DNA from: a virus
DNA: 64,000 nucleotides
Virus record (IMG/VR): IMGVR_UViG_3300045988_131485
Reading direction: 5' to 3' (one strand)
Below, piece by piece: positions 13,401 to 61,880 of this stretch. The first letter of the stretch is position 1. The number at the start of each line of letters is the position of its first letter. The translations under genes and the position numbers were made by a program. Below the pieces are notes generated by a model. The model saw nothing but the letters and a program-made list of their open reading frames with translations. It was not told where the DNA came from and did no database searches.

Positions 13401-13420
13401 AATTGATTTTCTTTGCAGCT
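13401..13420 (-). promoter_or_regulatory. Degenerate copy of the AGCAACAAAG box (AGCTGCAAAGAAAATCAATT)
   Basis: Intergenic, upstream of the fibre gene. Confidence 0.35.
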
Positions 13421-13438
13421 TTTGCGACTGGCACGAAA

Positions 13439-13822
13439 TCAGAATACTCCTACCATATCGCGTACTACTTCCTCAGTAGTAGCAATAGATCCTTCTGTAA
13501 TATCAGCAGCAGTACCGCCAACGGGGACGCCATAGGTTTTAATCTGACCAGCACTGATCCATGTCAGTTTGCTTTCCGCGCCATTGTTCATTACATAGAA
13601 CAGGTCATCAGCCAATGTTTCACGCTCAATATCATCGGGTGTAAGTTTCCACGTACCTTCGATATTGTAAACACCGGTCTCCAAAGCACTGATTACAGTT
13701 CCGGTTCCTGCAATGTTTGTTACAGGGCGGTTTTTCAACTGGTCATAGTCAGAAACACCGCCAGAAGAACCGCCGCCTCCGCCCTGATTAGTCAAGGCAG
13801 AAATCCAGCTCAAATCAGCCAT
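13439..13822 (-). CDS. Hypothetical structural protein with Gly-rich N-terminus
   Basis: 127 aa. GGAGG SD. NQGGGGGSSGG tract like the one in the DGR target N-terminus. Confidence 0.5.
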   Translation of the reverse strand: MADLSWISALTNQGGGGGSSGGVSDYDQLKNRPVTNIAGTGTVISALETGVYNIEGTWKLTPDDIERETLADDLFYVMNNGAESKLTWISAGQIKTYGVPVGGTAADITEGSIATTEEVVRDMVGVF

Positions 13823-13836
13823 AATTGTGCCTCCTC

Positions 13837-14127
13837 TCAGAACATATAGTAAATATTGACATTAACCGCCTCAGAAAATTCCAGAGACGTAATGTTAATC
13901 TGATCCATGCCCAGCTCAAAAATACCAGTGATCAGTGGGATCTCCTTCCCGTTGATTTTCACTTTCGTTCCTTCTGGGCAAATCATACTGAGCTTCCGCA
14001 GCGACATTTGACCGAAGTTCAAAATGCTATTGGGATTATCCGCACGCTCATTCTGTTTGAAGATATCCAGCATATTGACATTCGGCGTCACAGTCCCGCA
14101 AAAACAACCCAAATGTGCCTGTGACAT
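13837..14127 (-). CDS. Hypothetical phage protein
   Basis: Trimmed to the ATG at 14127 with AGGAAAGGAG upstream. Confidence 0.5.
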   Translation of the reverse strand: MSQAHLGCFCGTVTPNVNMLDIFKQNERADNPNSILNFGQMSLRKLSMICPEGTKVKINGKEIPLITGIFELGMDQINITSLEFSEAVNVNIYYMF

Positions 14128-14143
14128 TTTTCTTACTCCTTTC

Positions 14144-15067
14144 CTAAGCAAGTACAACAAAGTCCAACTCTTCCAGAGTCATATCGTCGATCTCTGCCAA
14201 GGTTTTATCGTCCAGATCTGACAACAGGCGGTAGCGCTTCATGCCCGCATTCAGTGTCATTAGAATCTCTGCATCATTTGACACAGCAAACAAGCTGATC
14301 GTCTCGACAACCAGTTCGTAGAACATTTCGATAGCATTACCAATTTGCAGTTTCTTTTCTGCAATGGTTTCTGGTTCGGAAGTCTCAATACCGATTGCAT
14401 TGCTACCGTCCCCCAGAGAATAGTGGAACTCTGTTTCTCCAATGCTTGCCGCAATCGCAAATGCGGCCTCCATTCCTGTTGTATAGCGATAAAGCAGCTC
14501 CGGGCTTGTCTGGTCAATACCGATCGCACTACTGCCTGACTCAAAATCGTGTTTCCGAAATGCAAGATCATTTGCACCAAAAACAGTCTGATTTTGAATA
14601 GTGTCAAAGACTTGCTTTTGTTCCGCAAGACTTTTTGCTACAATCGCCATTGCACTCTGCGCATCGCCAAGGGAACTCTTAGCATAAGCAATCGGCTGGC
14701 TAACTTTGATACCGATTTGACTTTCCAAGGCAAAGAAACTCTGGGCAAACAGCGTGAAAGCTGGGATATCCAGCCTCATCGCTGCCTGCTCCAGTTCGTT
14801 TCGATACTTGATAGTAAGTGCGGCGCTCGCTTCCAGACAAACTTGATCACCGATTTTCTCACTGACCGTAGCCAGCATCTCGTCGATCTCCGACAACAAA
14901 GCAGATTGATTTGCCACTGCAATTTTCTTTTGCAGGCTGAAATATGACAGCATCGCCCGCAAAACTACTCTGTTTACAGCTGATACGCCATCACGAAATG
15001 GGAGGGAGTAAACGATGATTGAACCTTCAGTCAAACGCTGTTTCAGGAAAATATCGTACTCCTTCAT
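14144..15067 (-). CDS. Hypothetical baseplate/tail-tip region protein
   Basis: 307-aa ORF. AAGGAG SD. Lies within the tail-tip gene block. Confidence 0.5.
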   Translation of the reverse strand: MKEYDIFLKQRLTEGSIIVYSLPFRDGVSAVNRVVLRAMLSYFSLQKKIAVANQSALLSEIDEMLATVSEKIGDQVCLEASAALTIKYRNELEQAAMRLDIPAFTLFAQSFFALESQIGIKVSQPIAYAKSSLGDAQSAMAIVAKSLAEQKQVFDTIQNQTVFGANDLAFRKHDFESGSSAIGIDQTSPELLYRYTTGMEAAFAIAASIGETEFHYSLGDGSNAIGIETSEPETIAEKKLQIGNAIEMFYELVVETISLFAVSNDAEILMTLNAGMKRYRLLSDLDDKTLAEIDDMTLEELDFVVLA

Positions 15068-15080
15068 CTCCTATCGCTCC

Positions 15081-15485
15081 TTATGCCGTCGGGTTCACCA
15101 CAGACAGGTTCAGAGAACCCAGCTTGATGGTCATGATGGTTGCAGCCTCAACACGACGACTTGCAGACAGCTCGCCGTACATCAGCAGGTTGCCACCAGT
15201 CAGAGCATCGTAAACAACGAAGTGGGTCATAGTGCCCCACTCGGAAGTGCTCTCCGCAAAATCAATCGCAGCATTGTTGGTCACGACGCCATTAACAGGG
15301 GCGCTCAAAGAAGTCAGCTCTACACGAGCATAGCCGGTGCCATCACCAGGCTCAACAACGCCACTGCCATCCAGAGCAGGCGCGGCGCTACTCAGACCCA
15401 GATAATACTTCTCAGGCACAGCCGGGGTTTTCTTGGAGCCAAACACATTGCCTGACACCAAATTCAGAAAATAGGTCGTATTCAT
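15081..15485 (-). CDS. Hypothetical tail-tip protein
   Basis: ATG at 15485 lies 8 nt after AAAGGA. First gene after a conserved box. Confidence 0.5.
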   Translation of the reverse strand: MNTTYFLNLVSGNVFGSKKTPAVPEKYYLGLSSAAPALDGSGVVEPGDGTGYARVELTSLSAPVNGVVTNNAAIDFAESTSEWGTMTHFVVYDALTGGNLLMYGELSASRRVEAATIMTIKLGSLNLSVVNPTA

Positions 15486-15500
15486 CGTCCTCATCCTTTC

Positions 15501-15523
15501 TCAATGATTTTCTTTGTTGCTTA
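15501..15523 (-). promoter_or_regulatory. Conserved box TAAGCAACAAAGAAAATCATTGA
   Basis: One of 8 copies of the invariant 10-mer AGCAACAAAG. Its 3' end lies 15 nt before the start codon. Confidence 0.55.
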
Positions 15524-15907
15524 ATGAGGGAAACTTTTGTTGATATTGTTCGCAATGCGAATAATACCCTGATCCGGAATCTCAATTTCCCCTGAGATAT
15601 CCTGAATAGTAATCTGATAGATAAACTTACCGACCAGATCTACCGTTTCCTCTGGCAGCAACACCACACGCAGAACATTTGTTACAGTTCCGTCGCCGTC
15701 CTCACTCTTACTAACCTCCATCGGTTTGGCAATAAGCGGTGATCCGTTTTTGTTGACAAAATTGATCAACGCAAAACTGGCCGTACAGGAGGATAGATCA
15801 AACGGCTTTTTGTTTTGTGAAAAGAACGTGTGGAACACAAGTTCCTGCGTTGATCCTCCCACAAAGTCGATGGTAGGAAGTGAGTAAGGGCTGTAATCAC
15901 AATTCAT
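15521..15907 (-). CDS. Ig-like baseplate protein (BppU N-domain-like)
   Basis: 128 aa, beta-rich, pattern resembling the BppU_N Ig-like domain. Position after Tal. Confidence 0.4.
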   Translation of the reverse strand: MNCDYSPYSLPTIDFVGGSTQELVFHTFFSQNKKPFDLSSCTASFALINFVNKNGSPLIAKPMEVSKSEDGDGTVTNVLRVVLLPEETVDLVGKFIYQITIQDISGEIEIPDQGIIRIANNINKSFPH

Positions 15908-15930
15908 ACCTATCACCGCCCTTTCAAATA

Positions 15931-16110
15931 TTATTTTTCAGCGGATTTTGAAGTAGCTTCAACAATTTCCGCATTGTTCAAAACGTCGGCAACCTCTTCG
16001 AGAATGGCGATACTACCACTCAGATTTGCCAAATTCGCCTTGCCTTTTACATAGACATTGTTCAGCGCATTCAGCACGAATCCCAGTTGCTGCATAACTT
16101 GATCCTTCAT
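15931..16110 (-). CDS. Hypothetical 59-aa protein (below the ORF-track cutoff)
   Basis: Hand translation MKDQVMQQLGFVLNALNNVYVKGKANLANLSGSIAILEEVADVLNNAEIVEATSKSAEK. AAGGAGG SD. Confidence 0.5.
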   Translation of the reverse strand: MKDQVMQQLGFVLNALNNVYVKGKANLANLSGSIAILEEVADVLNNAEIVEATSKSAEK

Positions 16111-16120
16111 ATAGTCCTCC

Positions 16121-19100
16121 TTACAAAGACTTGATTTTTTCTTCCAGTTCGGAGATGCGACGGTAAAGCGTTTGAATCATGTAGGTATTCAAAGAGATAA
16201 ACTCCCCATACCGCAGACGATAGAAAACGTCATCAATACCGTCTTTGGGATTGACTTCTTGGACAGGAGTAATTGTCAGGCCGGCAAAGTCATTCGTCGT
16301 CAAACCACTTTCCAACAATGCACGCTCAACGTCCTGCGCGATAAATCCAGTATGAAGTCTCTTAGACTTTCCAGCTTTTAGCTGATACTGAGTAGGTTTC
16401 AGCTTCATAAAGAAATTCTCGTACTTGTCCATTCTGTACTCGATCGCTTGCTTCAATCTCCTATCAGATCCGACCGAGATCTCTTCATCAGCAAACAAAC
16501 CATTGTTTGTAATGGTAAAACCATGATCCGGCGCCTGCATACGCACACCTTTGTTGGTCGCAATAAAGTAGTATTCATCATCACTTCCGTACATTTTAGC
16601 GCCGTAAGTAAAACTCACGCCGTCGCTGCCCCTCGCGCAACAGAATCCACCATACTCACTGCCAAGAGTGATCAAATCGGCGTCAATCTGACCTGCACGA
16701 ATATAGCTTGCATTGATATACAGCTTGCGCGTCGAAGAATCACTAAAAACGCCAAACTTTGTACCGCCATTTGTCAAAACATTAAAAACGTTTCGCTCAT
16801 TGACGGTCGCATCGCTTCCGTCCATACCATCCTGGCCGTCTTTACCATTCTGACCGTCTTCACCGCGAATCTTAATCGCCGAAGTCCAGGTCACTCCGCC
16901 ATCGTAGGTATAAGAAGCATAGAGATCTCCGTCATTGATAGACTTGTGCCAACTGGTACTTCCCCTGGACGGATACGAGTTGTATGACCCGGTAGGAGGT
17001 GAGGCGGCAATACTGCAATACAACACCAAGCACGGGCTGTTGCCGCTGCCCCAAGTAATGCTGCCGTCCGCCATATTGATGCTGCCCTTCATAGTGACAT
17101 TGCCGGACGGATCGACATAGAACGCGCCGTTGTTTACATCAATACCGCAGCCTTTCAGCCATCCACCAGATTGTGGATCGGCGGTCAGATTTCCGCTCAG
17201 TCTTGAGGCAGAGAGCGTACCACTAAACTCGCCATCTCTTGCGTGCAGTGTGCCGTCTCGCTTTACCCAGAATTTTGCATTCTCAGGTTTTGTAGCACCC
17301 GCCCAAATCGCATACAGCGAATTGGTATCCCTGGAAGAGTTGAGGGCAACAAAAGTAGAGTTTGATCCACAATGAAGCTCATTCTCGGCCAGTTCCCACC
17401 CGCCAATCGAACCGGAGTCGGCCTTGATTCTTCCTCTGAAATAAGCGCTGCCATCTCGAAGATCCAGATAGAAGTTTGCGTTCTCAGGCATACCGTCCGC
17501 ATCGAACTTGATATCGCCCCAATCGTCAATAAACTCCGGGGTCACGGTTGTACCGTTAGTATTGAACAGGAGCTTATTGCCGGCCACGATACCATACTTC
17601 GGATCGAAGATCATCAGGCCACCGTCGTCATGCTGCATAATGTACGAGGCGTTATACAACCACGCTCCGGTGGCGTCCACCTTGAATTGCATTACGCCGT
17701 TATCGTTGGCGTTCTCCAAGACGAGGTTGTTACCAATAATGAGACTACCCGCAAGCAGTTCTGTATTGATACCCCATGTCTCTCCAATCAGGATATCGTT
17801 ACCCTTATCATCTTTGAGACCTGTTTTCGCATCGGAGTAAAACCGACCGATACCCAGTTTAGCAGTCTTCCAACCATCATCAGTCATGGCAATCATGTTG
17901 TCCACGATACGCAGTTGATACTTACTGTCACCGCCCACTTGGATACCCGCACCATTGATCACAACGCTCTGATTACTTGCGCCAATAATGGTGTTTACTG
18001 CCGCATTCAAGGCGTTCTCCATAAACTGCGAAACCTGAGTAGTCTTATTCGCAGTTCTGTTGTAGAGGTATTTGCTGGTATCAAAACTGCGGCTGGACGC
18101 ACTGACCTTATTGACCTCACTCAGCCAATTCGCAACTACGTCACGTTTTTGGAAACGATTAGAAAAGGTCAATGTCAACTTCTCGGGGTTCTCAAAGTCC
18201 AGAGCTACCCCGATCAGCTTCGGCTCGATCACACCACCATCACCGACGTTCAGATAAATGCTCTTGCCGAACTCCAATTTATTCTTAAACGGCTCAAATT
18301 CTTTCTGGAACAAGAAATTAGCCGTATCAATGGAAAACTCGTAAACAGGCCATGCCCATTCATCCAAAAGCTCTTCGCCAAATGCGTACAGCTCTTGCGC
18401 CACAGAATATTTTTGATACTCGTTCACATTTACTGTGAAAAACAGCTTGGATGTGCCCGCCTCAAAAGAAATCTGGGTGCCTTTGTTCTCCGTTACCCCA
18501 TCCTGAGAAACAGGAGAAATATCACTGCTGAACTGAGAAAGTATGCCAGATGCAGTAACAAGTCCGCTCGGGAAGCTATGCTCATCAAACGTCGTAGATC
18601 CCATGTACACCGTCAGTACATATTCGTTTGTACTTGGGTTAACCTCCAAAGTACCACGCACAATGTCTGCCGTCAGCTTTGCGCTGGCAATTTTCAAAAC
18701 GCCGCCCGCAATAGCATACATACTTTTACCGTTAAGACTTGCCTGTGCAATATCAGCCCCGGTCAATGTAACCTCCCCCTGCAATGTGGAGATGGCACCA
18801 GAAGCCGATGTATCTACATCGGTCGCAACGAAAGTTTCTTCTGCCGCTTCGCCCTCAATCAAATAGTGGTTGAGGATTTTTTGTTCGGCTTTTGTGAAAT
18901 ACTTGGAAATAGACAGCTGCTCTACAACACCCTGAATATCAGTGGTATACCGATCAATCTCTGCCTGCAAATTCGCAATCACTGTTTCTTGCGCCTCAAT
19001 CTCAGAGTTCTTTGCAGAGATTTTCTCATTGATCTCTGTCAGCTGTTGCTGTTGACTTGTCTTTCCAGCGGCAGTGGATTCCAGAGCCATTGCCTGGATA

Positions 19101-29633: not shown

Positions 29634-29656
29634 TCAATAATTTTCTTTGTTGCTTA
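29634..29656 (-). promoter_or_regulatory. Conserved box TAAGCAACAAAGAAAATTATTGA
   Basis: Contains the invariant AGCAACAAAG. Its 3' end lies 15 nt before the start codon at 29618. Confidence 0.55.
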
Positions 29657-30265
29657 CGCCTTTCTTGAGTTCAGCAGACCTTGCAGGATTCCACCTTCAC
29701 CCAGTCCTTTGGTACCTTCGGAAAGGATACCGGCATACTGCATGAGCGACTCCGTGTCGATATCCTTCACCTTATCGGCCAATCCCTCCAACAGATCGCG
29801 GAGAGCTGTATCCGTACCATGATCGGCAAGAATACTGCTCTTTTTCCAGTCGATAGCCTGCCCGCACAGGGGAACCATCTCATTCAGCATATCCTGATAT
29901 CCGGCGTTCTGAACGTGATCCAAGTCCATAGCCAGATACAGTTCATTCATGGCATCCACATCCAAAGCGGAAGCTCCCGCTTCATCTGTCTCGTTTTTGA
30001 GCGTCATGGCCGGGATATTGGTACACATCTGGAGAATGGTAGCTCGCAGCATAGGCGAGACATACTCAGGGCGGAACTTGCCCGTCGCATCGAAACATCC
30101 AGAAACCACACGATTCAGAAAGGTGCTCTTCTCTGCGATAGTCAGAGCTGTATGGAATGACACCTCAAAAGAGCTGTCCCCCACAGTAAACGCCTGGGTG
30201 TAAGCATCTTCCTTCTTGTTCTCTTTCAGAAAGGCTTTCACCGTATTTACAGCGATTTTCTTCAT
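29654..30265 (-). CDS. Putative tail assembly chaperone
   Basis: Acidic 203-aa protein upstream of the tape measure. ATG at 30265 with GGAGGA 8 nt upstream. Confidence 0.4.
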   Translation of the reverse strand: MKKIAVNTVKAFLKENKKEDAYTQAFTVGDSSFEVSFHTALTIAEKSTFLNRVVSGCFDATGKFRPEYVSPMLRATILQMCTNIPAMTLKNETDEAGASALDVDAMNELYLAMDLDHVQNAGYQDMLNEMVPLCGQAIDWKKSSILADHGTDTALRDLLEGLADKVKDIDTESLMQYAGILSEGTKGLGEGGILQGLLNSRKA

Positions 30266-45055: not shown

Positions 45056-45126
45056 TGAATCACCCACTCGTCAATTTGAACCCGACCTTATTTCAGTTGC
45101 ATATCGGGTAGCAACAAATATTTGTA

Positions 45127-47747: not shown

Positions 47748-48176
47748 TGGTGGAGCCGAGGGGAATCGAACCCCTGTCCGAAATCCCTACATGAATAAAA
47801 CAGTCTTACGCAATAGACAACACTTTATCAATTCGCCTCAAACTGAGACGGGCGGATCAGCAGTTGTCACTCCGCGCCCAGGGCACACCGGTTAGATGCA
47901 CCTCCACCACCTTGTTTCTTTTCACAGTGACAAGGAAAACTGCAATACTCTGACCGAATCTTCGACCTCAGATGTTTACCCGGTCAGTGGGTACATCGTT
48001 TTGGAATCCAGCCGTCATCAGGCGGCAATTCCCTTTGCTGCAAGAGCAGCGGAAAAAGCGGGATGGATCATTACAACAGTCGTATCGTTGTCATTTCATT
48101 TTTGTTTAAGCCTTGAGGCGGTCTTCTACCTGCGAGTCTTACTCTCTCAGAACCCCGTCGAACCCATTACGGCCCC
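47748..48176 (-). ncRNA. ssrA: tmRNA (SsrA), phage-encoded
   Basis: 5' GGGGCCGUAAUGGGUUCGACGGGG and 3' GGACAGGGGUUCGAUUCCCCUCGGCUCCACCA, with G3:U70. Internal open frame ends ...AALAAKGIAA UGA UGA, with the stops in a hairpin loop. Confidence 0.85.
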
Positions 48177-48704: not shown

Positions 48705-48726
48705 TCATTGATTTTCTTTGTTGCTA
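48705..48726 (-). promoter_or_regulatory. Conserved box TAGCAACAAAGAAAATCAATGA at the head of the tRNA island
   Basis: Contains the invariant AGCAACAAAG. Followed by the 7-bp inverted repeat CTATGGT..ACCATAG. Confidence 0.55.
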
Positions 48727-48762
48727 TGGTCATATGATACCATAGGCATTTCTGGATGTCAA

Positions 48763-48780
48763 TAGCTACAAAGAAAATTA
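48763..48780 (+). promoter_or_regulatory. Near-copy of the box in opposite orientation (TAGCTACAAAGAAAATTA)
   Basis: One mismatch in the 10-nt core. Lies 37 nt from the previous copy. Confidence 0.35.
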
Positions 48781-48796
48781 TTTTATATTTTTTGTG

Positions 48797-49087
48797 TCAC
48801 TGCTGCGAGTCTGTACCGGCGCGAACATCCTCTTTCAGGCTGTTACTGGCTCGGAACGTGGGTACCTTGCTATCGCTCGATACCCGCATCTCCCCGGTGG
48901 AGATGTTTTTGCTATTGCGGCCTTTTCTGGTTTTCACCTCAAAGGTTCCGAAACCTCTGAGCTGTACCTGTTCCCCACGAACCAGCGCGTCTCTGATGAT
49001 TTGGAGCACTTCGTCCACCACATCATTGGCCTGATTCTTGTAGTAGCCTTTCTCGCACAGAGCGGACACGATATCGGCCTTAACCAT
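48797..49087 (-). CDS. HU/IHF-family DNA-binding protein
   Basis: Motif GFGTFEVKTRKGRNSKNISTGE...FRAS..LK. AAGGAGTGG SD. Confidence 0.85.
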   Translation of the reverse strand: MVKADIVSALCEKGYYKNQANDVVDEVLQIIRDALVRGEQVQLRGFGTFEVKTRKGRNSKNISTGEMRVSSDSKVPTFRASNSLKEDVRAGTDSQQ

Positions 49088-50883: not shown

Positions 50884-53706
50884 TCAACAGTTATCGGACA
50901 TTGTTTTTGGGCATATCGCCGTTTCTCTACGGAAATGGAACCCATAAATTTCCACGTCCCACAGGCCGTCAGAAACCTCAGTCAACGTTGAAATGGGTGT
51001 CCGACTCTGCTCAATCAAGTCCAAAAAGCACTGATTAGGTGCCGAAAACAACGTATAAAACAAGGTGCGTGAGATATCTTTATTCTGAGGCTCCTCAATG
51101 GCGAGCATCAACCGATATGCAGTATGAGGACTGATCCGCAGTGACTTAATATAGTTGATATACTCCTGCCGAATCTCATGTACCAGGATTGCCTTACCGT
51201 AGTTATCCAGGTTTTCATCTGTTCCATCCCAAACTGCCCGGATCTTAGATCTCATATCTCTGACAAACTCCAAGATCCGCTCGACCTGTGAATAGCTCAC
51301 AGATTTTTGCAGATAGGCGTCGTTTACCAACAGTTCAGAAAACGGGATGAACGACGTATAAGCATAGCTTGTACGGTAAGAGTTCAGGCTGTGCTGCAAA
51401 AAGTCCATCGTCGTATTGTGGAAGCGATAGTTTTTGCCCACACTGTCATAATAGCCCTTCATGCGGGCGATCTTCCCGAAAAAGTTGGGCTTTACTTGCC
51501 GGCCATCATCGTCGCGTATCTCATATTTTTTTCTCAACCGTTTGATTTCCGCAACACTGTCTACGGCATATTCTCGCTTCGCCTTATCAATCTCGATGTT
51601 GCTCAAAACGTCCAGCTGGGCAATCTCGCAGTAAAGCTCCTCATACTCGGAAAAATCTGCTCCGCTGTTCAGCGCGTCCCACAGCTTCGTATTCAGCTCT
51701 TGGGAGAGGTTTACGATCTCACCGATCTTATTGACCGATGTTTTGATATCCAGATCAGACTGATCTGATTTGGTATAATGACGCACGATTTTCTTAGCGT
51801 CTACCATGCTGGTCGGGACGAGGAACTTGTGATAGTTCCGTTCTGCGGCCCGAATAAGGATGGCGTTGTTCGTCAGCAACATAGTATCAGAGTCAAAGTC
51901 TGCACCGGATAGCCGGAAAAGAATATTCTCGCCGATACTGTTGGTACACACGATCTCTCGCGTGGTATTGACGTACTGCCGGATCTCCTCGTTATCCGTA
52001 TTCCTCGCCAGGAGAACATTTCCCATCGTCACATGGGGACTGCGCGATCCGAGAATAGTCTGATCAAAAGCAAACTGTTGGCAAAAAATATTGCCTACTC
52101 CGATTTTACTCTCACCATCAAATTGCCCAATCGCAGAGTAGAGCATTTCGATGGGGTTTCCCAGCAGAGTTGAATAGTTCCCTTCTACAAGAATGTGTCC
52201 ACGGGCCAGCTCTTTTTTGAACGACTTCGATACGTCGGTTTTGAAGTTGTGGTACAGCCTCGTTTGAGAAAACTTATCTGTAACGCCCAACATCTGATAT
52301 ACCACATCGTTCGTCGTCGTAATTCCGTCGCTGTCGATCTCCTCATTCCCGCCCATATATTTGATATGGTACCGCAGCACCGCAGGATCTGTCTGAATCA
52401 TGCGCAGATAATCCAACGACGGTTTTACCAACTGGTCAACATCATCTTGCGAAAGCTGAAGAGTATTCAAAAGCTGGTAATGGATCTGCACCATGCGGCC
52501 ATCAAAGAAATGCGTCGGCTTCTCATGCTTCACGACACCAAAGTTACCGTCTTCGTCCAGCAATCTCAGCCACTGTTCCAGAGTGCCAAACTTCACGTAC
52601 TTAATACTACTGGGCGTAGTAATAACCTTGATATCGCTGATATCCTGCGCCAGCGTGAAACCGGAAAGCTGAGACACATCAGTAATGCCGCGATCGGCGA
52701 AGAACTTCTGGATATTGGTATTAAAGCAGGCTGATTTGAAAAAACGGTTCCGCAGAAGGATCATACCGTAATCCTGCCATTCGCCCATAGCACTTTTGTC
52801 AATGAGAGACTGTCCGTCCCAAATGCTATTCTCGATCTCAACCTCTTCCGGCTTTGAAGTAAGCCAGTTATCGCTGCCAATCCTTGTCGCCACAACGCGA
52901 TCTTTGAACACGCTCTTATAGTCGTCGATTACCAAGAAGTTCTCGGGCCGCAGCGGAATAGTACCGACGATGCTGCTCAGAGTAAGGGCGATATAGGCTT
53001 CCAGAGCGGCCAGATCAATCTCCTGACCCTCTTTTACTTTCAGCCCACAAAGCTCCCACTTGTGCATTCTTGGATACAACTGCTCATCAATGAACAGGCA
53101 CTTTCCAATTCGGCTGCTTCCGCTTGAACGCTTGAACCTACGGAACACAATACCATCACACGTGAATCCGTCTTGATAAAGACGATTCCGAAGCTGGGCT
53201 ACGGTAAGAAGTACCTTCATGGTTTTCCCGAGCCGATACATTCCGTTATCAAAAACGAACAGATCTCCCAGCTCTTGGGGAGAGGCCGGATTTTCGACGG
53301 GAGATCCTACCCGTACAGCAATCAGTTCCCCATCCTTGATACAAATGTTGTCGGTAAGATGCACATCCTGCGGCAGATAACCATACTTGATGTAGGTGTT
53401 GTCAAAGAAGCGATTAAACTCCTTGACGCTATACTTGAACGTGACATTGATCACGCGCCGGCAGTATTCTTTACCCCGCTTACTGAATGTGAAGTCCATG
53501 CGGCGGTATACCTTCTCATAAACTTCCCTCAGCTTTATCAGGTCGAGGCTATAATCCAAAGTGTTGACAAAACGTCTTGTATTGAACTGGTCGTTGTGGT
53601 CTGATCCAGCCAACTTCACAGAATATTCCTTGCTGTTCGGGCTTGAATAGTTCGCCAAAAACAAATCCTTGGCATCCACAGACACGATATAGACCGAATT
53701 ACCCAT
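50884..53706 (-). CDS. YonO-like single-subunit two-barrel RNA polymerase homologue (RdRP/beta-prime DPBB superfamily)
   Basis: 940 aa. SGADFDSD (nt 51886-51903), reminiscent of NADFDGD/DbDGD, preceded about 45 aa upstream by SRSPHVTMGNV, reminiscent of RxPxxHxxG. Confidence 0.6.
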   Translation of the reverse strand: MGNSVYIVSVDAKDLFLANYSSPNSKEYSVKLAGSDHNDQFNTRRFVNTLDYSLDLIKLREVYEKVYRRMDFTFSKRGKEYCRRVINVTFKYSVKEFNRFFDNTYIKYGYLPQDVHLTDNICIKDGELIAVRVGSPVENPASPQELGDLFVFDNGMYRLGKTMKVLLTVAQLRNRLYQDGFTCDGIVFRRFKRSSGSSRIGKCLFIDEQLYPRMHKWELCGLKVKEGQEIDLAALEAYIALTLSSIVGTIPLRPENFLVIDDYKSVFKDRVVATRIGSDNWLTSKPEEVEIENSIWDGQSLIDKSAMGEWQDYGMILLRNRFFKSACFNTNIQKFFADRGITDVSQLSGFTLAQDISDIKVITTPSSIKYVKFGTLEQWLRLLDEDGNFGVVKHEKPTHFFDGRMVQIHYQLLNTLQLSQDDVDQLVKPSLDYLRMIQTDPAVLRYHIKYMGGNEEIDSDGITTTNDVVYQMLGVTDKFSQTRLYHNFKTDVSKSFKKELARGHILVEGNYSTLLGNPIEMLYSAIGQFDGESKIGVGNIFCQQFAFDQTILGSRSPHVTMGNVLLARNTDNEEIRQYVNTTREIVCTNSIGENILFRLSGADFDSDTMLLTNNAILIRAAERNYHKFLVPTSMVDAKKIVRHYTKSDQSDLDIKTSVNKIGEIVNLSQELNTKLWDALNSGADFSEYEELYCEIAQLDVLSNIEIDKAKREYAVDSVAEIKRLRKKYEIRDDDGRQVKPNFFGKIARMKGYYDSVGKNYRFHNTTMDFLQHSLNSYRTSYAYTSFIPFSELLVNDAYLQKSVSYSQVERILEFVRDMRSKIRAVWDGTDENLDNYGKAILVHEIRQEYINYIKSLRISPHTAYRLMLAIEEPQNKDISRTLFYTLFSAPNQCFLDLIEQSRTPISTLTEVSDGLWDVEIYGFHFRRETAICPKTMSDNC

Positions 53707-55565: not shown

Positions 55566-56413
55566 ACGCTTTCCTCCTTCGCCGTCTTACGGTAATAGAA
55601 GAATTGGAGCTGCTGAACATAGCCGGCAAATCCGGCGTACTGAGAAGGATCGAAATTGCCATGGTAGACATCATCAATCATGCGGTTGATCCACACATCC
55701 CTGGGGTAACTGTCCATACGGTGAAGCCCAAACAGCATCACGCAGTTCGCAACCTTCTCGCCAATGCCCCGCAGAGCAATCAGCGTCTTCCGGGCCGTAT
55801 CGTCATCCTGCTTCTGGAGCTGCACCCAGAAATCTTCGTCATACTCGGCCATCTCTTTCACATAGCTTTCACGATAGCCCAGCGATGCCGGTGACAGATC
55901 CTGACCTCTCAGCTGCGCCGGCGTCGGGAAGGAATAGAACTGCTGGTCGTCGATCTCCCCCAGTGGCGTACCGAATGTCTGGCAGAGAACATCTACCGCT
56001 TTGCGAATGCGCGGGATGTTGTTACGCTGGGAGATAATAAAGGTCACTACCATCTCCCACAAATCCTGTCTCAGGATGCGGATACCGCCACCTGCCGCGA
56101 TCGCCTCCCGCAAAAACGGGTCTCCGGCCATCTTCTGCTGATATGCTTCATAGTCGGCAGACAGGTCAAAATAGGGCATCCATACATCCCGGAACTCATC
56201 ATAGGGGCAGTGAAAAACATACCCGCCATTGGTACTCGGTGTGATTTTCACCAGCTTCATACCGGTGATCGCCACATATCCCCTATCTTGCAGTGCGGTC
56301 AGCCGGAAGCACTGGCCGGAATCTGCAATCTGCTTCAAATCAAACGTATGGGGAATGTTAATGAGCACGCCATCAGAAACCCTCCGGCAAATTACCTTTT
56401 CGCCACTCATCAT
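55562..56413 (-). CDS. 8-oxoguanine DNA glycosylase-like HhH-GPD enzyme (Ogg/AlkA family)
   Basis: N-terminal DSGQCFR motif, and HhH-GPD LRGIGEKVANCVMLFGL....YPRDVW. Confidence 0.7.
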   Translation of the reverse strand: MMSGEKVICRRVSDGVLINIPHTFDLKQIADSGQCFRLTALQDRGYVAITGMKLVKITPSTNGGYVFHCPYDEFRDVWMPYFDLSADYEAYQQKMAGDPFLREAIAAGGGIRILRQDLWEMVVTFIISQRNNIPRIRKAVDVLCQTFGTPLGEIDDQQFYSFPTPAQLRGQDLSPASLGYRESYVKEMAEYDEDFWVQLQKQDDDTARKTLIALRGIGEKVANCVMLFGLHRMDSYPRDVWINRMIDDVYHGNFDPSQYAGFAGYVQQLQFFYYRKTAKEESV

Positions 56414-56786
56414 ACTCGCTCCTTTTCTTCAAATATTTGCGGATTATGCTCAGTCCGCAGTACACCAGATCGCAATACGGCTTGGAGCCGTCGCCATCGT
56501 ATTGGGTAATTGCTGATACAACCTCCTGCTCCGTCAGATTCTCCGGCACATACCGGAACAGCTCAAATACCTCCTGCATTTTCTCAATGAGGCGGATATT
56601 ATCGGCGCAGGTTTTGACTTGACTCTTAGCCAGTGTCAGCATTGTCGCCGGGTCAATTCCATAGAGTCTTGCGGCATTTCTATACGCTTGCACCTCTTCA
56701 AACAGAGCGGCACGCTCCTGATTCATACGCAGGATCGTCGCTTCAGACTCGTTCAGTCTGCGCGTCAACTCTTTAAGATCGTCCAC
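56373..56786 (-). CDS. Hypothetical early protein
   Basis: 137-aa helical ORF. GTG start with AGGAG 8 nt upstream. First gene after a conserved box. Confidence 0.45.
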   Translation of the reverse strand: MDDLKELTRRLNESEATILRMNQERAALFEEVQAYRNAARLYGIDPATMLTLAKSQVKTCADNIRLIEKMQEVFELFRYVPENLTEQEVVSAITQYDGDGSKPYCDLVYCGLSIIRKYLKKRSEYDEWRKGNLPEGF

Positions 56787-56800
56787 TGCACGTGCTCCTT

Positions 56801-56824
56801 TCTGATTGATTTACTTTGTTGCTA
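56801..56824 (-). promoter_or_regulatory. Conserved box TAGCAACAAAGTAAATCAATCAGA
   Basis: Contains the invariant AGCAACAAAG. Its 3' end lies 14 nt before the start at 56786. Confidence 0.55.
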
Positions 56825-56832
56825 TTTGAAGG

Positions 56833-57048: not shown

Positions 57049-57060
57049 ATATCCACCGCC

Positions 57061-57960: not shown

Positions 57961-57984
57961 GTAGCTTCTTCACTCCGAGCGTAA

Positions 57985-58299: not shown

Positions 58300-58314
58300 A
58301 TCATCTCACCACCA

Positions 58315-58683
58315 TTATTTGAAGAAATCGCGGTAGACCTTTTCGATGATGGTATGGCTGGAAATGTTGACACTCGGGACTGCCCATCGAGCCGTAGCCT
58401 CGAAGTCCTTCTCGTGCGCCGCAATGTAAGACCTCATGTCATTTCGCAGCCCATCCACCGTACCGATCGCACAGAGCAGAGAGTGTTGCACCGCCTCAAA
58501 GTCCTTGATGGCACGATCTTTGTCGGGGCCGTCCGGGTAAAGGTCAATGACGCCCTTGCGCACAATCGCTACCTTAGCTTTCTCTTCCAGATTTGTTTCG
58601 GCGGCAAAGTAGTCCAACAGCAGCCGTTCTCTTTGCCGGTCAGCCGGCGTCCATTCCGGCTGGGAGTGCTTCTTCAGGAACAT
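58315..58683 (-). CDS. Hypothetical early protein
   Basis: Trimmed to the ATG at 58683 with GGAGG 7 nt upstream. Confidence 0.45.
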   Translation of the reverse strand: MFLKKHSQPEWTPADRQRERLLLDYFAAETNLEEKAKVAIVRKGVIDLYPDGPDKDRAIKDFEAVQHSLLCAIGTVDGLRNDMRSYIAAHEKDFEATARWAVPSVNISSHTIIEKVYRDFFK

Positions 58684-59049
58684 AGTAAAACCTCCAAAAA
58701 TGTTCAAAAGTTCAGAACCCCAAAATCGAATTATCACTTTTGAGGTGATAAATTCTAAATTTCGATGCTCAAACGCTCGTCAACAAACGGGGTATTTGAA
58801 AATCGTCCCTTAGAAGGGGAAGGGGTAATATCGCTACGCTCAAAGTAGTCTAAAAAGTTGCAAAAATAGCCAATTTGCAAAGGGGAAGTTTTTGCAGTTA
58901 GGCCGCTCGCTTCGCTCGCGGATATACGGAGAGTTGGTAGCGGCCTAACCCAAAAGGTAGGTGCGGGGTAGACACTTTCGATTTAGTCATCTACCCATCC
59001 CCAGTATCTTGAGTCTTCTGCCAGCTGGCAGCGTGAACACCAGAGAAAA

Positions 59050-59820
59050 TTAAATATCCCCTAACAGGTCGATTGAAACATCGTGGTAGGCTTTCTTCTC
59101 TTCCTCGTCAGCGATACCGATATAACGCATGGTGATGAGAGCGCTGGAATGACCGAAAAGACGCTGGAGGAACACAATGTCGTGGTTACTCTGGTAGTGG
59201 AAGTATCCGAAAGTCTTCCGCAGGGTATGGGTACCGATGTTCTGCTTGATCCCGCAAGCCTTAGCCGCATCCTTCAACTTCTTGCGCAGGGTGTCCACTT
59301 CAATGTGACCACCTTCACGGGAAGCGAAGATATATCCATCAGAGTAGTGGCCGGCATCGTTACCATAGTACCACTGAATAGCGTGGACACAGGATTCATT
59401 CAGATAGAGTCCACGTCGCTTGTCTACCTTCTCCTGAAAGACTGAGATTTTGTCGGTGGTATCGGTGTAGTCTCCAACAATGTAGCGGATCTTGCCGTCA
59501 GGGAAGAAAATATCAGAACACTTCAGTTCCAGAAGCTCGTTGGCTCTGAGGCCGAGGTTGATACCCAAGATGAATGCCAGCAGGTATTTGGGATCAGCAT
59601 TGGCCCGTAGCCAAGAGGCCATAGCGTCAAGCTGCTCACGAGACTTGATCGGGAAAACCGTCTGCTCTTCTCCTTTGCGGTAGTTGACCTTCTTGGGAGG
59701 CTCGACAGCAGAGGTACCGGGGAACTGAATGATTTTACAGCTGGTCGGCGGTACGGTATTGATCTGAGGAGCCGTAGGCTGATCAAAGAGGGTAAGTTGC
59801 GTGTCCATAGTCCACCTCAT
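59050..59820 (-). CDS. Small tyrosine recombinase (integrase family)
   Basis: LRANELLELK (Arg I), HTLRKTFG (H-x-x-R), GHSSALITMRYIG (His...Tyr). The ATG at 59808 is an alternative start. Confidence 0.8.
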   Translation of the reverse strand: MRWTMDTQLTLFDQPTAPQINTVPPTSCKIIQFPGTSAVEPPKKVNYRKGEEQTVFPIKSREQLDAMASWLRANADPKYLLAFILGINLGLRANELLELKCSDIFFPDGKIRYIVGDYTDTTDKISVFQEKVDKRRGLYLNESCVHAIQWYYGNDAGHYSDGYIFASREGGHIEVDTLRKKLKDAAKACGIKQNIGTHTLRKTFGYFHYQSNHDIVFLQRLFGHSSALITMRYIGIADEEEKKAYHDVSIDLLGDI

Positions 59821-59867
59821 TTTCTTTGTCGCAAAAGACCGTCAGTTGTTGTCTCTTATCTTAATAT

Positions 59868-59896
59868 ATTCTACCATATCTGTGGTCTAAAGTCAA
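59868..59896 (-). promoter_or_regulatory. Sigma-70-type promoter for the leftward early operon
   Basis: TTGACT-17 nt-TAGAAT with an upstream TG. Confidence 0.65.
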
Positions 59897-59902
59897 TCAG
59901 AA

Positions 59903-59923
59903 TATTAGTTTTCTTTGTTGCTA
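59903..59923 (-). promoter_or_regulatory. Conserved box TAGCAACAAAGAAAACTAATA just upstream of the -35
   Basis: Contains the invariant AGCAACAAAG. Confidence 0.5.
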
Positions 59924-60099
59924 TCGAAGAAGAATACGACTGTAAACGGGGTGAATTATAGAGGGTTGACAGAAAAACCGAGGTTGTAAGGCTAAAAATG
60001 TGATTTTGGAGGTACGGGTTTAATTCATTTACTGTTGGGGAATCGTCGAGATTGTTCCCGAGTGAAAAATGGGGATATGGGGTGTACGTGATAGAGTAG

Positions 60100-60720
60100 A
60101 GGTACTGAGTCGTTTCGTGAGAAACGGGGCGGGCGCGAAAATGTGAAGGCTCCCCCGGTGCCGGTGGCGTCCAGGCAGGCGGGCGGGGTGCCGTTGTTCG
60201 TCTGCTGACGGGCAAAAATAGGCCGGGGTTCTGCAAACTCTCCAAAAGCAGAATTGACAGAGATAGAGACGGGCGGGAGTACGTCGGGAGACTGGGAGCT
60301 TCAGCCGGTGCGGGCTGGGGTGCCTGCTGGCCTGGGGCGGTGCTGGGCTGGCCGTTTTGGGGCGGGGTTCGGTCTATATATGACTTTGACGGCAAAACGG
60401 CAGGCAAGCGGGCGCAAGTCCTCATCTTTTCGCCCTTTCTCCCTTCGTGCTCTTCTTCTCCCTCTTCGGATGTCCTCGCGTTCTCCGGCTGGCTCTGTCT
60501 GTTTGATCTGGGCGGGCAAGCTGGCGGCATAGGGGCGGCGGGCGGCGTGTCCGTCTGGCCGTGGTGCTGGGCGTGTCGTGCGTCTCCTGCGGCAGGCGGC
60601 AGGGCTGGCCGCTCTCGTGCCGTGTCTGCTGGCCGTCTCCCCTGCTGGCCGTGCTGGGGTAGTCTGTGCGGGCGCTGGGGCTGGCGCTGGGCATGGGCGG
60701 TGATCTCAGGCCAAGCGGCT
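60100..60720. other. GC-rich, strand-asymmetric non-coding island (polypyrimidine tract followed by a G-rich, A-depleted tract)
   Basis: No plausible CDS or SD. About 14 A in 290 nt at 60421-60710 (manual count). Several G3+ run clusters. Confidence 0.6.
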
Positions 60721-60859
60721 TGCTAATCAGCAAAATGCACAAAGATTCAATAAGAAATGCAGCATAATGACGAAAACAATGCCTTGTATTTTGTGCTTTT
60801 TACGCTGTAAATATGCCTGTTTTTGTGTAAAATAGGCTGTTTTTCTAACTTTTTGGATA

Positions 60860-60881
60860 TAGCAACAAAGTTAATGATTGA
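60860..60881 (+). promoter_or_regulatory. Conserved box TAGCAACAAAGTTAATGATTGA overlapping the -35 of the rightward promoter
   Basis: Contains the invariant AGCAACAAAG. Confidence 0.5.
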
Positions 60882-60906
60882 CGGATGGGATCTTTTATGA
60901 TAAGAT
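60878..60906 (+). promoter_or_regulatory. Sigma-70-type promoter for the rightward arm
   Basis: TTGACG-17 nt-TAAGAT. Confidence 0.6.
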
Positions 60907-60986
60907 ATAGACAGTTAAAGAGGGCGGGCGCTGGGGCCGTTGGCCGGGGGTATCCTCTCCGGGCGGCAGGCTCCACCGCTTCCCGA

Positions 60987-61007
60987 TAGCAACAAAGTAA
61001 ATCAACG
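60987..61007 (+). promoter_or_regulatory. Conserved box TAGCAACAAAGTAAATCAACG
   Basis: Contains the invariant AGCAACAAAG. Its 3' end lies 16 nt before the ATG at 61024. Confidence 0.55.
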
Positions 61008-61023
61008 TAAAGGAGAATGAACA

Positions 61024-61821
61024 ATGAAAAAGACTTACAACATGAGCGAGACCATGACGCGGGCATGGGCCATCCGCAAAGCGGCAGCGGCTGACATGGG
61101 GTGCAAGGTGTCTGAAGTCCTGATGGGCGAATGTCTGAAGATCGCCTGGGCTGAAGCTGAAGGCGCAAACGCTGAGACCAACGCCGCCGCCATCGTGGGT
61201 GAGTGGGCGAACATGGCCGACGCTGACAAAGTGCGCATGATGACCGCTTGCATCCGCAAGGCGGCAAAGAATGAAATCGGCTATTCCACCGAAGACCATT
61301 ACCTGCAGTTCTCTGAAGTGCCCGCGTTCGGTTGCTTCCGCACTCATGACTTTGACGAGTTCGTGTCCGAGACCTGCATCCGGGTTCTTGACAAGCTGGC
61401 CGACCTTGACAAGCTGGCCGCAACAAATGAACGGCGGGCCGCTCAGGGTAAGCGCCCGATGCGCCTGGTGTCCGTTGTCTACAATGCGGCGCGGGCTTCC
61501 ATTGCGGCGGTGTACTACGCCGACAGCAAACACGGCGCGGCGTATGACTGGGAGATCAATGACGGCGAGGGCAACGCGGCGAGCTTCCTTGAAACCTGCT
61601 GCGGAGATGCTACGGTGAACACCGAAACAAGCGCCATCATCCGGGCAGACCTGGACGCGTTCCGGGATGGGCTGGACGAGATCGGGCGGCAGATTTTGGA
61701 AATGGTAGCCGCGCACAAGACAGAGCGCGAGATCGGGAAAGCCGTGGGCATCTCTAATGTTGCCGTACACAAGCGCATTGTGAAAATGCGGGCGGCGCTG
61801 GAAAGCCTGCGGGTTGCCTGA
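61024..61821 (+). CDS. Sigma-70 region-4-like / HTH transcription regulator
   Basis: C-terminal LEMVAAHKTEREIGKAVGISNVAVHKRIVKMRAAL resembles a region 4.2 HTH. AAAGGAG SD. Confidence 0.55.
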   Translation: MKKTYNMSETMTRAWAIRKAAAADMGCKVSEVLMGECLKIAWAEAEGANAETNAAAIVGEWANMADADKVRMMTACIRKAAKNEIGYSTEDHYLQFSEVPAFGCFRTHDFDEFVSETCIRVLDKLADLDKLAATNERRAAQGKRPMRLVSVVYNAARASIAAVYYADSKHGAAYDWEINDGEGNAASFLETCCGDATVNTETSAIIRADLDAFRDGLDEIGRQILEMVAAHKTEREIGKAVGISNVAVHKRIVKMRAALESLRVA

Positions 61822-61839
61822 AAAGAAATTTTTCCGAAC

Positions 61840-61880
61840 GGTTAGCAACAAAGAAAATCAATCTGTAAATAATAGCGGGG
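61840..61880 (+). promoter_or_regulatory. Promoter-like box GGTTAGCAACAAAGAAAATCAATCTGTAAATAATAGCGGGG (combines both motif families)
   Basis: TTAGCA/TGTAAAT spacing is sigma-70-like. Precedes the gene at 61934. Confidence 0.5.

Follow-up and report, generated by a model that had tools for sequence, protein, structure and literature searches.

Dispersed sequence elements in related phages

The closest described counterpart of the repeated box analyzed here is the SPBRE element of Bacillus phage SPbeta, for which binding of the master repressor MrpR (YopR) has been demonstrated by ChAP-seq and EMSA (PMC10516654). In the SPbeta sequence, SPBRE lies just 5' of the -35 element at aimR, after the -10 element and before the Shine-Dalgarno sequence (SD) at yonX and yopV, and directly before the SD at yopM and yonP, co-oriented with the genes. 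The box is found in the same classes of context (5' of -35, after -10, 5' of the SD) and is likewise gene-co-oriented. Both elements are asymmetric, A/T-rich and 15-20 bp long, and both are present in about ten copies in a temperate siphophage. In addition, the two phages share a YonO-type polymerase, an HU-like gene and an exonuclease in one neighborhood, and the common synteny runs from the polymerase via the HU-like gene and the exonuclease to a gap and the late genes. However, the sequences of SPBRE and the box are unrelated, and no MrpR homolog is detectable here. Unlike SPBRE, the box is also present within the late structural operon and in the spacer of a phage-sigma-type promoter; late-operon copies have not been reported for SPbeta, which argues against an operator function of the box.

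The stoperators of cluster A mycobacteriophages (L5 gp71) are numerous asymmetric repressor sites in short intergenic gaps, which are oriented with transcription and in part lie within operons, without a promoter. This description fits the four boxes with the upper coordinates 13424, 15525, 29658, and 56827. Stoperators differ from the box in host phylum, sequence, and repressor family, the box has a lower copy number, and no HTH immunity repressor was identified in this phage. The single-motif promoters of T7-like polymerases and of the two-barrel polymerases of P23-45 resemble the box in being conserved, gene-co-oriented motifs of about 20 bp in phages that encode a polymerase. In contrast to these promoters, the box keeps a register to host-type promoters, has an antisense copy and a copy within another promoter, and is present at the earliest promoters. 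The start-associated sequences (SAS) of cluster K mycobacteriophages are also repeats near start codons, but the ribosome-binding site is part of them and the start codon is 3-8 bp away, whereas the SD is outside the box, and boxes are also found at promoters and before tRNA genes.

Copies of the box and their positions

The window, i.e., the whole stretch of 64,000 nucleotides of viral DNA that was analyzed, contains the features listed in Table 1. A preliminary description had reported eight exact, exclusively intergenic copies of the 10-mer AGCAACAAAG, and both the number and the intergenic location hold. The copies are at 15512, 29645, 48716, 56814, and 59913 on the minus strand and at 60861, 60988, and 61844 on the plus strand, whereas shuffled sequences contain 0.21 on average and never more than 2; with one mismatch allowed, 20 matches were seen and 5.3 were expected. 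A 24-nt matrix was derived from the eight exact copies, so that their own scores of 31-37 bits are circular. Shuffled sequence reached at most 17 bits. Two of three weaker copies proposed earlier exceed this value and are therefore retained (those at 13401 and in the 48760 region), while the third, 45109-45126, scores below 10 bits and is unsupported. The partial box GCGACAAAGAAAAT is near background. The consensus is TAGCAACAAAG-W-AAATCAWT, an asymmetric element of about 20 bp. Close relatives have two extra boxes in the right arm, just past the end of the window, and the total is about 12 copies per genome of about 72 kb.

Table 1. Boxes, associated promoters, and genes of the polymerase and of candidate box binders.
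Feature	Position	Strand	Remarks
Degenerate box AGCTGCAAAGAAAATCAAT	13401..13424	-	21 bits; gap before gene 12220-13311
Box TAAGCAACAAAGAAAATCATTG	15502..15525	-	34 bits; starts with upstream stop codon; followed by SD and start of Gp80-like fiber gene
Box	29635..29658	-	starts with upstream stop codon; followed by SD and start of gene 29130-29618
Box	48706..48729	-	7 nt past -10 of tRNA/late-operon promoter, at about +1; followed by hairpin and tRNA-Ala
Sigma-70-like promoter TTGACA-17-TATCAT, extended TG	48734..48762	-	11/12 matches; flanked by two boxes
Degenerate inverted box AGCTACAAAG	48760..48783	+	25 bits; abuts -35 of tRNA promoter
HU/IHF-family DNA-binding protein	48797..49087	-	second candidate binder
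YonO/QDE-1-like two-barrel single-chain RNA polymerase, GADFDSD	50884..53706	-	940 aa; would read the box if the box were its promoter
Box	56804..56827	-	directly 5' of SD of gene 56373-56786
Short tyrosine-recombinase-family protein, catalytic domain only	59050..59808	-	candidate box binder
Partial box GCGACAAAGAAAAT	59814..59837	-	11 bits; immediately 5' of SD of gene 59050-59808
Sigma-70-like promoter TTGACT-17-TAGAAT with TG	59868..59896	-	drives gene 59050-59808
Box	59903..59926	-	upstream of short tyrosine-recombinase promoter; 16 nt from 10-mer to -35
Box	60857..60880	+	3' end overlaps -35 of rightward early promoter
Sigma-70-like promoter TTGACG-17-TAAGAT with TG	60878..60906	+	drives gene 61024-61821
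Box	60984..61007	+	past GC-rich leader; adjoins SD and start of gene 61024-61821
Box	61840..61863	+	fills spacer of phage-specific promoter GGTTAGCAAC-box-CTGTAAATA, upstream of gene 61934-62293

The strand of the box equals the direction of the gene at every copy except 48760(+). The first box bases, TAA, double as the stop codon of the preceding gene at 15512 and 29645. Counted from the end of the 10-mer, the start codon is 26 nt away at 15512, 29645, and 60988 and 27 nt away at 56814, in agreement with the 14-16 nt between box end and start codon given before. The gene at 56373-56786 heads a block that includes the polymerase gene, and gene 29130-29618 precedes the tape measure gene. The absence of a sigma-70 -10 element from most copies had also been noted. 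This is only partly right: the three sigma-70-like promoters with the best match in the region each have an associated box (48716, 59913, and 60861), and the box at 61844 lies in a phage-specific promoter. No promoter is near the late-operon boxes (13424, 15525, and 29658).

Conservation of site and register across lineages

The preliminary description had proposed to search for the box in relatives, and related lineages indeed bear their own box sequence at homologous sites. These sites abut a sigma-70-like -35 element, extend from +1 of the tRNA/late promoter, occupy the spacer of the phage-specific promoter, or lie directly 5' of an SD. The box is TAGCAACAAAGWAAAT in type A, ..GAAYAAAATC/T.. 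in types B, C, and D, AGTTATCCGAAATGCATAA in type E, GAGYCAAAAATACATA in type F, TAAGCAAAACATTTAAT in type G, and AACTATAAAAATAATA in L161. Because the box changes in concert at homologous sites, lineage by lineage, a cognate trans-acting factor is indicated.

The register to the host-type promoters is also kept. The tRNA promoter is conserved in lineages A-G, and the distance from its -10 element to the start of the box is 7 nt in types A-D, F, and G, and 9 nt in type E. Across lineages, 1-4 nt separate the end of the box core from the -35 element at the rightward early promoter, and 9-12 nt at the recombinase promoter. The inverted box at the tRNA promoter, which points antisense, has a perfect counterpart in the relative L143 and a near-perfect one (GAACAAAATT) in L156. 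Such an orientation fits an operator well but a promoter poorly.

Candidate binding proteins and alternative functions

The short tyrosine recombinase is a candidate for the box-binding protein by virtue of its position and by analogy to MrpR. Its gene is apparently a single-gene unit, divergent from the early rightward promoter. The HU/IHF-family gene, located beside the exonuclease and polymerase genes, is conserved in the lineages examined. Several observations count against an operator function: similarity to MrpR is undetectable in both tyrosine recombinases of the window, and no gene for a CI-like repressor was found in either the window or the right arm. In addition, the short recombinase retains all catalytic residues in orthologs down to 25-30% identity and thus looks catalytic, unlike MrpR, and its catalytic domain is near-invariant among box types A, F, and G and does not track the box type.

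A phage RNAP-like enzyme had been postulated, and this was borne out, as the product of 50884-53706 models as a QDE-1/RDR2-like two-barrel polymerase and is collinear with YonO of SPbeta. The box could be its promoter of about 20 bp, with initiation at or just after the 3' end; leaders would then be very short and begin at the ribosome-binding site, and boxes beside host-type promoters would form tandem early/late promoters. We regard this as unlikely, though as the most probable of the alternatives. A polymerase encoded by the phage must have a promoter, and no other repeated motif that would suit it was found. It also counts for this alternative that phage two-barrel polymerases use conserved motifs 5' of their start sites (P23-45 preprint), and that the YonO promoter is still undefined (PMC5467207). 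The co-orientation with genes, the near-constant 26-27 nt to the start of four genes, the three late-operon boxes without another promoter nearby, and one box whose position, between the HU-like and the late genes, corresponds by synteny to the YonO start region of SPbeta, all agree with a promoter, and the box sequence shifts between lineages as the identity of the polymerase drops. However, the polymerases of types D and E are both at 71% to this one, and the D box is A-like while the E box is not. The anatomy of the box makes a promoter less likely than an operator: an independent promoter needs no fixed register to -35 and -10 elements, yet the register is conserved across lineages; one box occupies the spacer of a promoter of another class; a conserved box is directed, in antisense, towards the genes for HU, the exonuclease, and the polymerase; and boxes flank the earliest promoters, at which transcription has to begin while the polymerase does not yet exist. 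Furthermore, the analogous SPbeta repeat is a mapped repressor operator, and no SPBRE was seen in the SPbeta interval with the mapped YonO start. The least probable of the alternatives, with hardly any likelihood left, is that the box is a promoter or operator recognized by the sigma-like HTH protein of 61024-61821. The C-terminus of this protein resembles sigma region 4, its gene is preceded by two boxes, and the 5' TAGCA in box types A-D resembles the TTAGCA of a second motif, but the protein co-occurs with this different, bipartite motif, GGTTAGCA-N15-CTGTAA, of which L128 has 16 copies in its right arm and the window has 5, versus about 0 expected. The motif is absent in lineages that lack the 61024 protein. 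Of the 16 L128 promoters with this motif, 14 have unrelated spacers, while at the 61934 promoter the spacer is filled by the lineage's own box. The phyletic pattern contradicts recognition of the box by this protein, since type E and L161 have boxes without it, and type F combines a different box with the same HTH helix and the same motif. The earlier suggestion is thus unsupported.

The box might also act in RNA, as a single-stranded A-rich site in the 5' leader for a phage protein or a small RNA, and binding would govern translation, processing, or antitermination of the downstream gene. This seems improbable. It would fit that all strong copies are sense, that four boxes adjoin the SD on its 5' side with constant spacing, that the tRNA transcript would start with the box, and that predictions leave the box unpaired at five of six sites, with only weak pairing at 15512; the inverted 48760 box would place an anti-box in read-through RNA. 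However, the boxes at 59913 and 60861 (including the homologs of both in the other lineages examined) and at 61844 lie outside the transcript of the accompanying promoter, so that the 5'-UTR element proposed before is possible for SD-adjacent copies and fails for those 5' of -35 or in a spacer. Moreover, translational control is needless for tRNA genes, and binding to the equivalent SPBRE is to double-stranded DNA. Neither an RNA-binding protein for the box nor a small RNA complementary to it was found, no Rfam family matches it, and no RNA structure is predicted at the box. Still less probable is that the boxes are "arm-type" accessory sites of the short tyrosine recombinase, which would serve recombination or DNA processing and not transcription. 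The recombinase has all catalytic residues, lacks a core-binding domain, and has a variable N-terminal segment, and its gene has boxes on its flanks. Yet the boxes have no dyad symmetry and occur genome-wide in both orientations, and any recombination among boxes would cause essential regions to be lost or inverted, which disfavors this possibility. In addition, the register to promoter elements and SD suggests a role in gene expression, and phi18-2 and Javan374, which have homologous short recombinases, show no such repeats.

The box as a probable dispersed operator

We lean, with slightly more confidence than doubt, towards the box being a dispersed operator for a phage-encoded regulator, like SPBRE of SPbeta. 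Part of the roles listed in the preliminary description is supported, but an operator was not on its list. We infer that the box acts as DNA and that the bound factor represses; a repressor is the most likely type of regulator. The three late-operon boxes would be explained more simply by an internal promoter, and the co-orientation with genes suits a promoter equally.

The phage, a temperate siphophage of gut bacteria, is found integrated in Oscillospiraceae, among them cultured strains of Dysosmobacter and Hominicoprocola. The prophage sits within contigs of 164 kb and 388 kb of cultured isolates, with host flanks at the left end. A temperate lifestyle requires a repressor for its maintenance. 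At the three strong host-type promoters, a protein on the box (abutting or just 5' of -35, or at +1) would block RNA polymerase, and at the 61934 promoter, which is of the phage-sigma type, it would occupy the spacer that separates the -35 from the -10 element. Within the long operons, where a stop codon precedes the box and a ribosome-binding site comes next after it, the bound protein could be a stoperator-like roadblock. A sequence-specific DNA-binding regulator encoded by the phage would thus control many transcription units together.

The box and its copies

The preliminary description reported eight exact copies of the box core, and all of them were recovered at their positions: AGCAACAAAG occurs exactly eight times in the window, versus 0.21 occurrences on average and two at most in shuffled sequences. 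One-mismatch matches to AGCAACAAAG number 20, versus 5.3 expected. Alignment of the copies on the gene strand gave an element of about 20-24 nt with the consensus (T/A)(A/T)AGCAACAAAG-W-AAAT-C-A-W-T. A matrix built from the eight copies (shuffle maximum 17 bits) added two further boxes (see the table of features), and a partial copy precedes the SD of the short recombinase gene, while a weaker copy suspected earlier at 45109 fell below the matrix threshold. In total, this temperate phage has eight strong and two degenerate copies, plus two in the right arm, the rightward region beyond the window in relatives, of an element that is intergenic and asymmetric. The constant spacing to start codons noted before was also found: at 15512, 29645, 56814 and 60988 the 10-mer is followed at a distance of 26-27 nt by the start codon, with the SD alone in between. 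All strong copies are co-oriented with their neighboring genes.

RNA structure prediction at the box regions found no structure, and an Rfam search at the boxes and in the GC-rich spacer gave no family match. An IHF-like reading of the AATCAA in the box is a weak lead: it covers the first half of the IHF consensus only and is absent from other lineages.

Features of the window and of related loci (positions refer to the window unless another sequence is named)
Feature	Position	Strand	Remarks
Strong box copies	15512, 29645, 48716, 56814, 59913	-	exact core
Strong box copies	60861, 60988, 61844	+	exact core
Box from matrix scan	48760-48783	+	25 bits
Box from matrix scan	13401-13424	-	21 bits
Second motif	61840-61875, 62385-62420, 63151-63190, 63692-63730	+	
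Second motif	4604-4640	+	one mismatch, antisense to late genes
Tyrosine integrase	3513-4538	-	full-length, SAM-like and catalytic domain
Reverse transcriptase gene	6588-7751	-	
RT-2 RNA motif	7743-7964	-	RF03077, 182 bits, full-length
DUF6273 protein	9075-11168		697 aa
tmRNA	47748-48176	-	RF00023, 89 bits
HU-like protein	48797-49087		
Polymerase	50884-53706	-	940 aa
Gene behind palindrome	58315-58737		
Perfect palindrome	58731-58752	-	TTATCAC-N7-GTGATAA
Short recombinase	59050-59808		
GC-rich stretch	59950-60750		800 bp, ~65% G+C
Sigma-like protein	61024-61821		
Variable cassette	62340-63750		
Ribbon-helix-helix/ParD-like gene	63198-63422		74 aa
Right arm of L128	10817-20523		10 kb
Repeat array, L435	13388-13760		36-nt repeats
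Repeat array, L437	14258-14700		36-nt repeats
Recombinase, Javan374 (L217)	15988-16530		Streptococcus phage
Recombinase, phi18-2 (L216)	985-1536		Bacillus phage

A temperate siphophage

No close phage relatives were found in GenBank, where only the tRNAs gave matches. The genes present, among them those for the large terminase, portal, tail fibre and a tape measure protein of 2722 aa, are those of a long-tailed siphophage. The window contains 22 tRNA genes, and within their array lies a phage tmRNA that is not listed by ARAGORN. The same phage (polymerase 99% identical) is present, collinear with the window, in large contigs of Hominicoprocola fusiformis (164 kb) and Dysosmobacter segnis (388 kb). 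At its left end (about positions 1-366), the element adjoins different host genes in different samples, and in some samples another integrase-bearing element, and an integrase gene is located near the left prophage boundary. The copies in isolate contigs, the variable host flanks and the nearby integrase indicate that the phage is temperate. As the same prophage resides in the cultured strains D. segnis BX15 and H. fusiformis CLA-AA-H269, experiments are feasible.

Several further features were observed. In the tail region, an RT-2 motif directly upstream of the reverse transcriptase gene and a DUF6273 protein gene nearby look like a diversity-generating retroelement. A perfect palindrome overlaps a promoter-like site upstream of the gene at 58315 and has the appearance of an operator for another, dimeric regulator. 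The variable cassette, in place of which close relatives have other genes, encodes a ribbon-helix-helix/ParD-like protein and, on the minus strand, a 206-aa protein whose gene has its own strong promoter and terminators; the cassette possibly represents a moron or a toxin-antitoxin module.

The box family in related prophages

Loci around polymerase homologs were retrieved, 80 of them viral and 80 genomic. Each of the examined relatives with both the polymerase and the short recombinase has its own over-represented box at homologous sites (see the table of box types). Judged from these sequences, the box is a family-wide system and not peculiar to the genome of the window. The copies change together within a genome, while the sequence differs between genomes, and this concerted change calls for a cognate trans-acting reader. 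The phages phi18-2 and Javan374, which encode a homologous short recombinase and no polymerase, contain no repeated boxes. In the L430 group, an A-rich repeat is linked to the SD, and its surroundings look partly host-like.

Lineage-specific box types and the loci that contain them
Box type	Sequence	Loci
A	TAGCAACAAAGWAAAT	window, L143
B	..GCAAYAAAATCTCT	L146, L153
C	..CGAAYAAAATCA	L147, L156
D	CGAATAAAATTAAT	L177
E	AGTTATCCGAAATGCATAA	L158, L179-L189
F	GAGYCAAAAATACATA	L132, L220, L342
G	TAAGCAAAACATTTAAT	L341
L155-type	TAGCACGCCAAAAAT	L155
L161-type	AACTATAAAAATAATA	L161

Position of the box relative to promoters and genes

At the tRNA/late promoter (TTGACA-17-TATCAT with TG), the box starts 7 nt past the -10 element, i.e., at about +1, in types A-D, F and G, and the gap is 9 nt in type E. 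A second box abuts the -35 element of this promoter, in inverted orientation in types A, C and G and in direct orientation in type E; the antisense copy at 48760 has counterparts in L143 and L156. The rightward early promoter has a box whose core stops 1-4 nt short of the -35 element in types A, B, C and F, and a second box follows a GC-rich leader, directly 5' of the SD. At the promoter of the short recombinase gene, the distance between core end and -35 element is 9-12 nt in the same four types. Boxes inside operons occupy the gap from the stop codon to the next SD, and neither a promoter nor a terminator is found near the copies 13424, 15525, 29658 and 56827. The GC-rich stretch between the divergent promoters has no convincing ORF and no Rfam match; it is rich in short repeats of the GGCGGG/GCTGGG type, and parts of it are kept in L132 and L155.

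A second motif and the sigma-like protein

Nearly all rightward early genes that follow the gene for the sigma-like protein have a bipartite second motif, GGTTAGCA-N15-CTGTAAWTATAGT, in front of them. The right arm of the related locus L128 contains 16 copies versus 0 expected, and the window contains five versus 0.03 expected. The motif is restricted to lineages encoding the sigma-like protein and is missing from type E, L161 and others without it. In the type F lineage, the motif consensus and the HTH helix SNVAVHKRI of the protein are both unchanged, but the box is different, as exemplified by L132 with its identical helix. Furthermore, boxes persist in lineages that lack the protein. The earlier proposal that the sigma-like protein binds the box was therefore rejected on phyletic grounds. 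The protein tracks the second motif, and the restriction of this motif together with the unchanged motif and helix in type F argues that it is probably the sigma factor of a second promoter class.

Box copy 61844 fills exactly the spacer of one second-motif promoter, and one further copy in the right arm does likewise. Types B and C have their own box in the same spacer; the other 14 second-motif promoters of L128 have unrelated spacers. A regulator site between the -35 and -10 elements is a classic repressor arrangement.

A YonO-like polymerase

The 940-aa protein has no sequence match in Pfam or PDB, and PF05183 was found in some of its homologs. It contains a GADFDSD motif, which includes DFDSD, and it aligns collinearly with YonO of phage SPbeta, including the metal-binding motif. 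Its AlphaFold model (pLDDT 84) matched QDE-1/RDR2 two-barrel polymerases in a Foldseek search (E ~1e-14). From sequence and predicted structure, we identify it as a putative QDE-1/RDR2-like two-barrel phage polymerase that is distantly related to YonO. Among cultured phages, those of Enterocloster come closest, with a related polymerase at 23-24% identity. In type E relatives and some relatives of type D, the match extends over 3.8 kb rather than 2.8 kb, pointing to an insertion in the gene.

Candidate box-binding proteins

The short recombinase gene lies in the interior of the element, a long way from the left end, and is divergent from the early rightward promoter. Downstream of the gene come a structured gap of 312 nt and then a promoter-like site that is separate from it, so that the gene has the look of a single-gene unit. 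Such a position would be apt for a maintenance repressor and makes the protein a candidate binder. The protein is devoid of a core-binding domain and belongs to the same fold family as MrpR, the SPbeta repressor. However, homology to MrpR was rejected, because sequence similarity is absent and the catalytic residues are conserved; R, K, HxxR, H and Y are kept in orthologs down to 25-30% identity. Across box types A, F and G the catalytic domain is nearly identical, and about 40 N-terminal residues alone vary. The HU-like protein, which is conserved in the lineages examined, is another candidate and could act like TF1 of phage SPO1. An invariant 10-mer is unusual for the HU-like family.

Identity matrices of the polymerase, the short recombinase, the sigma-like protein and g61934 revealed that all proteins diverge together, and a comparison of types A, F and G found no sharp tracker of the box type among the polymerase, the short recombinase, the sigma-like and the HU-like protein. 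Therefore, the binder stays a matter of candidates.

Two viral contigs with a short-recombinase homolog (40-42%), L435 and L437, contain arrays of 36-nt repeats (GTTTTAGAAGAATGTAAATTTATAGGTATCTAAAAC) with spacers of about 30 nt, which look like CRISPR. The homologous recombinases of Javan374 and phi18-2 consist of the catalytic domain only and are encoded just upstream of packaging genes, separate from the true integrase. Late-gene regulators often sit just upstream of packaging genes.

Comparison with known systems

The SPBRE is a 15-bp motif at about ten promoter regions of SPbeta, and MrpR, which has a tyrosine-recombinase fold, binds to it in ChAP-seq and EMSA (PMC10516654). SPBRE contexts were read here from the SPbeta sequence NC_001884. 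The motif lies 6 nt upstream of the -35 element of aimR, right after the -10 element and directly 5' of the SD at yonX and yopV, and directly 5' of the SD at yopM and at yonP, which immediately precedes yonO; it is always co-oriented with the gene. The box shares these context classes, i.e., copies within or beside host-type promoters and immediately 5' of an SD, in gene orientation. In addition, both are asymmetric intergenic elements of 15-20 bp that occur about ten times in a temperate phage. However, the SPBRE consensus CAAATACAAATAATATGTATA (as read here) is unlike the box, with general A-richness alone in common, and neither recombinase of the window is similar to YopR (MrpR) in BLASTP. 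The gene neighborhood corresponds to that of SPbeta: the order is polymerase, exonuclease, HU-like protein, gap and late genes in the window, and yonO, yonN, gap, yonK, yonJ and late genes in SPbeta.

The copies 13424, 15525, 29658 and 56827 resemble the stoperators of cluster A mycobacteriophages, which are asymmetric, follow the direction of transcription and occupy short gaps between the genes of an operon. Stoperators have a phage-encoded HTH immunity repressor as their partner; a CI-like repressor was not recognized in the window or the right arm, where many small ORFs are without assignment. A start-associated sequence (SAS) lies 3-8 bp from the start codon and takes in the ribosome-binding site. 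In contrast, the SD lies outside the box, 3-7 nt after it, and boxes are also found at promoters and before tRNA-Ala. The box system may be functionally analogous to SPBRE/MrpR and, in part, to stoperators, although homology was not supported in these comparisons.

Operator, polymerase promoter or RNA site

On balance, we lean towards the view that the box is a dispersed operator of a phage regulator. This is favored by the conserved register to host-type -35 and -10 elements, the box embedded in the spacer of another promoter, the copy that points antisense, the presence of boxes at the earliest promoters, the precedent of SPBRE and the temperate lifestyle. Some of these observations bear directly on a different explanation, namely, that the box is the promoter of the phage's own single-chain two-barrel polymerase of the YonO family. 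The phage is predicted to encode such an enzyme, for which no other candidate motif was found, boxes are co-oriented with genes at a constant, minimal distance to the start codon, and the three late-operon copies 13424, 15525 and 29658 have no other promoter nearby. However, the box position is not independent of host promoter elements, the copies at 48760 and in L143 and L156 point antisense, and one copy lies within the spacer of another promoter, so that we regard this explanation as rather unlikely. Still more doubtful is a site that acts at the RNA level: it would account for the copies next to an SD, for which an unpaired state is predicted, but not for the copies outside the transcript of the accompanying promoter.

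The literature searched on YonO-type polymerase promoters and on SPBRE yielded no description of the box or of this phage group. Promoter recognition by YonO was still open in 2017 (PMC5467207), and no later paper was found that settles how YonO-type polymerases find promoters. In the interval of SPbeta with the YonO-dependent start, which is bracketed by published primers only, neither an SPBRE nor a box-like sequence was seen.

Implications for the prophage family

If the box were a polymerase promoter after all, it would be the means by which YonO-type polymerases find their promoters, readable from sequence in many gut prophages, and types A-G would be a natural specificity series with cultured lysogens at hand. 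The sigma-like protein, with about 20 cognate promoters, would represent a separate, putative second regulatory layer. If the box is an operator, the layout of SPbeta, in which a single repeated element governs a whole set of promoters, would also apply to a large, uncultured prophage family of Oscillospiraceae/Lachnospiraceae, and the box variants of the single lineages look like a ready-made set of immunity-like specificities.
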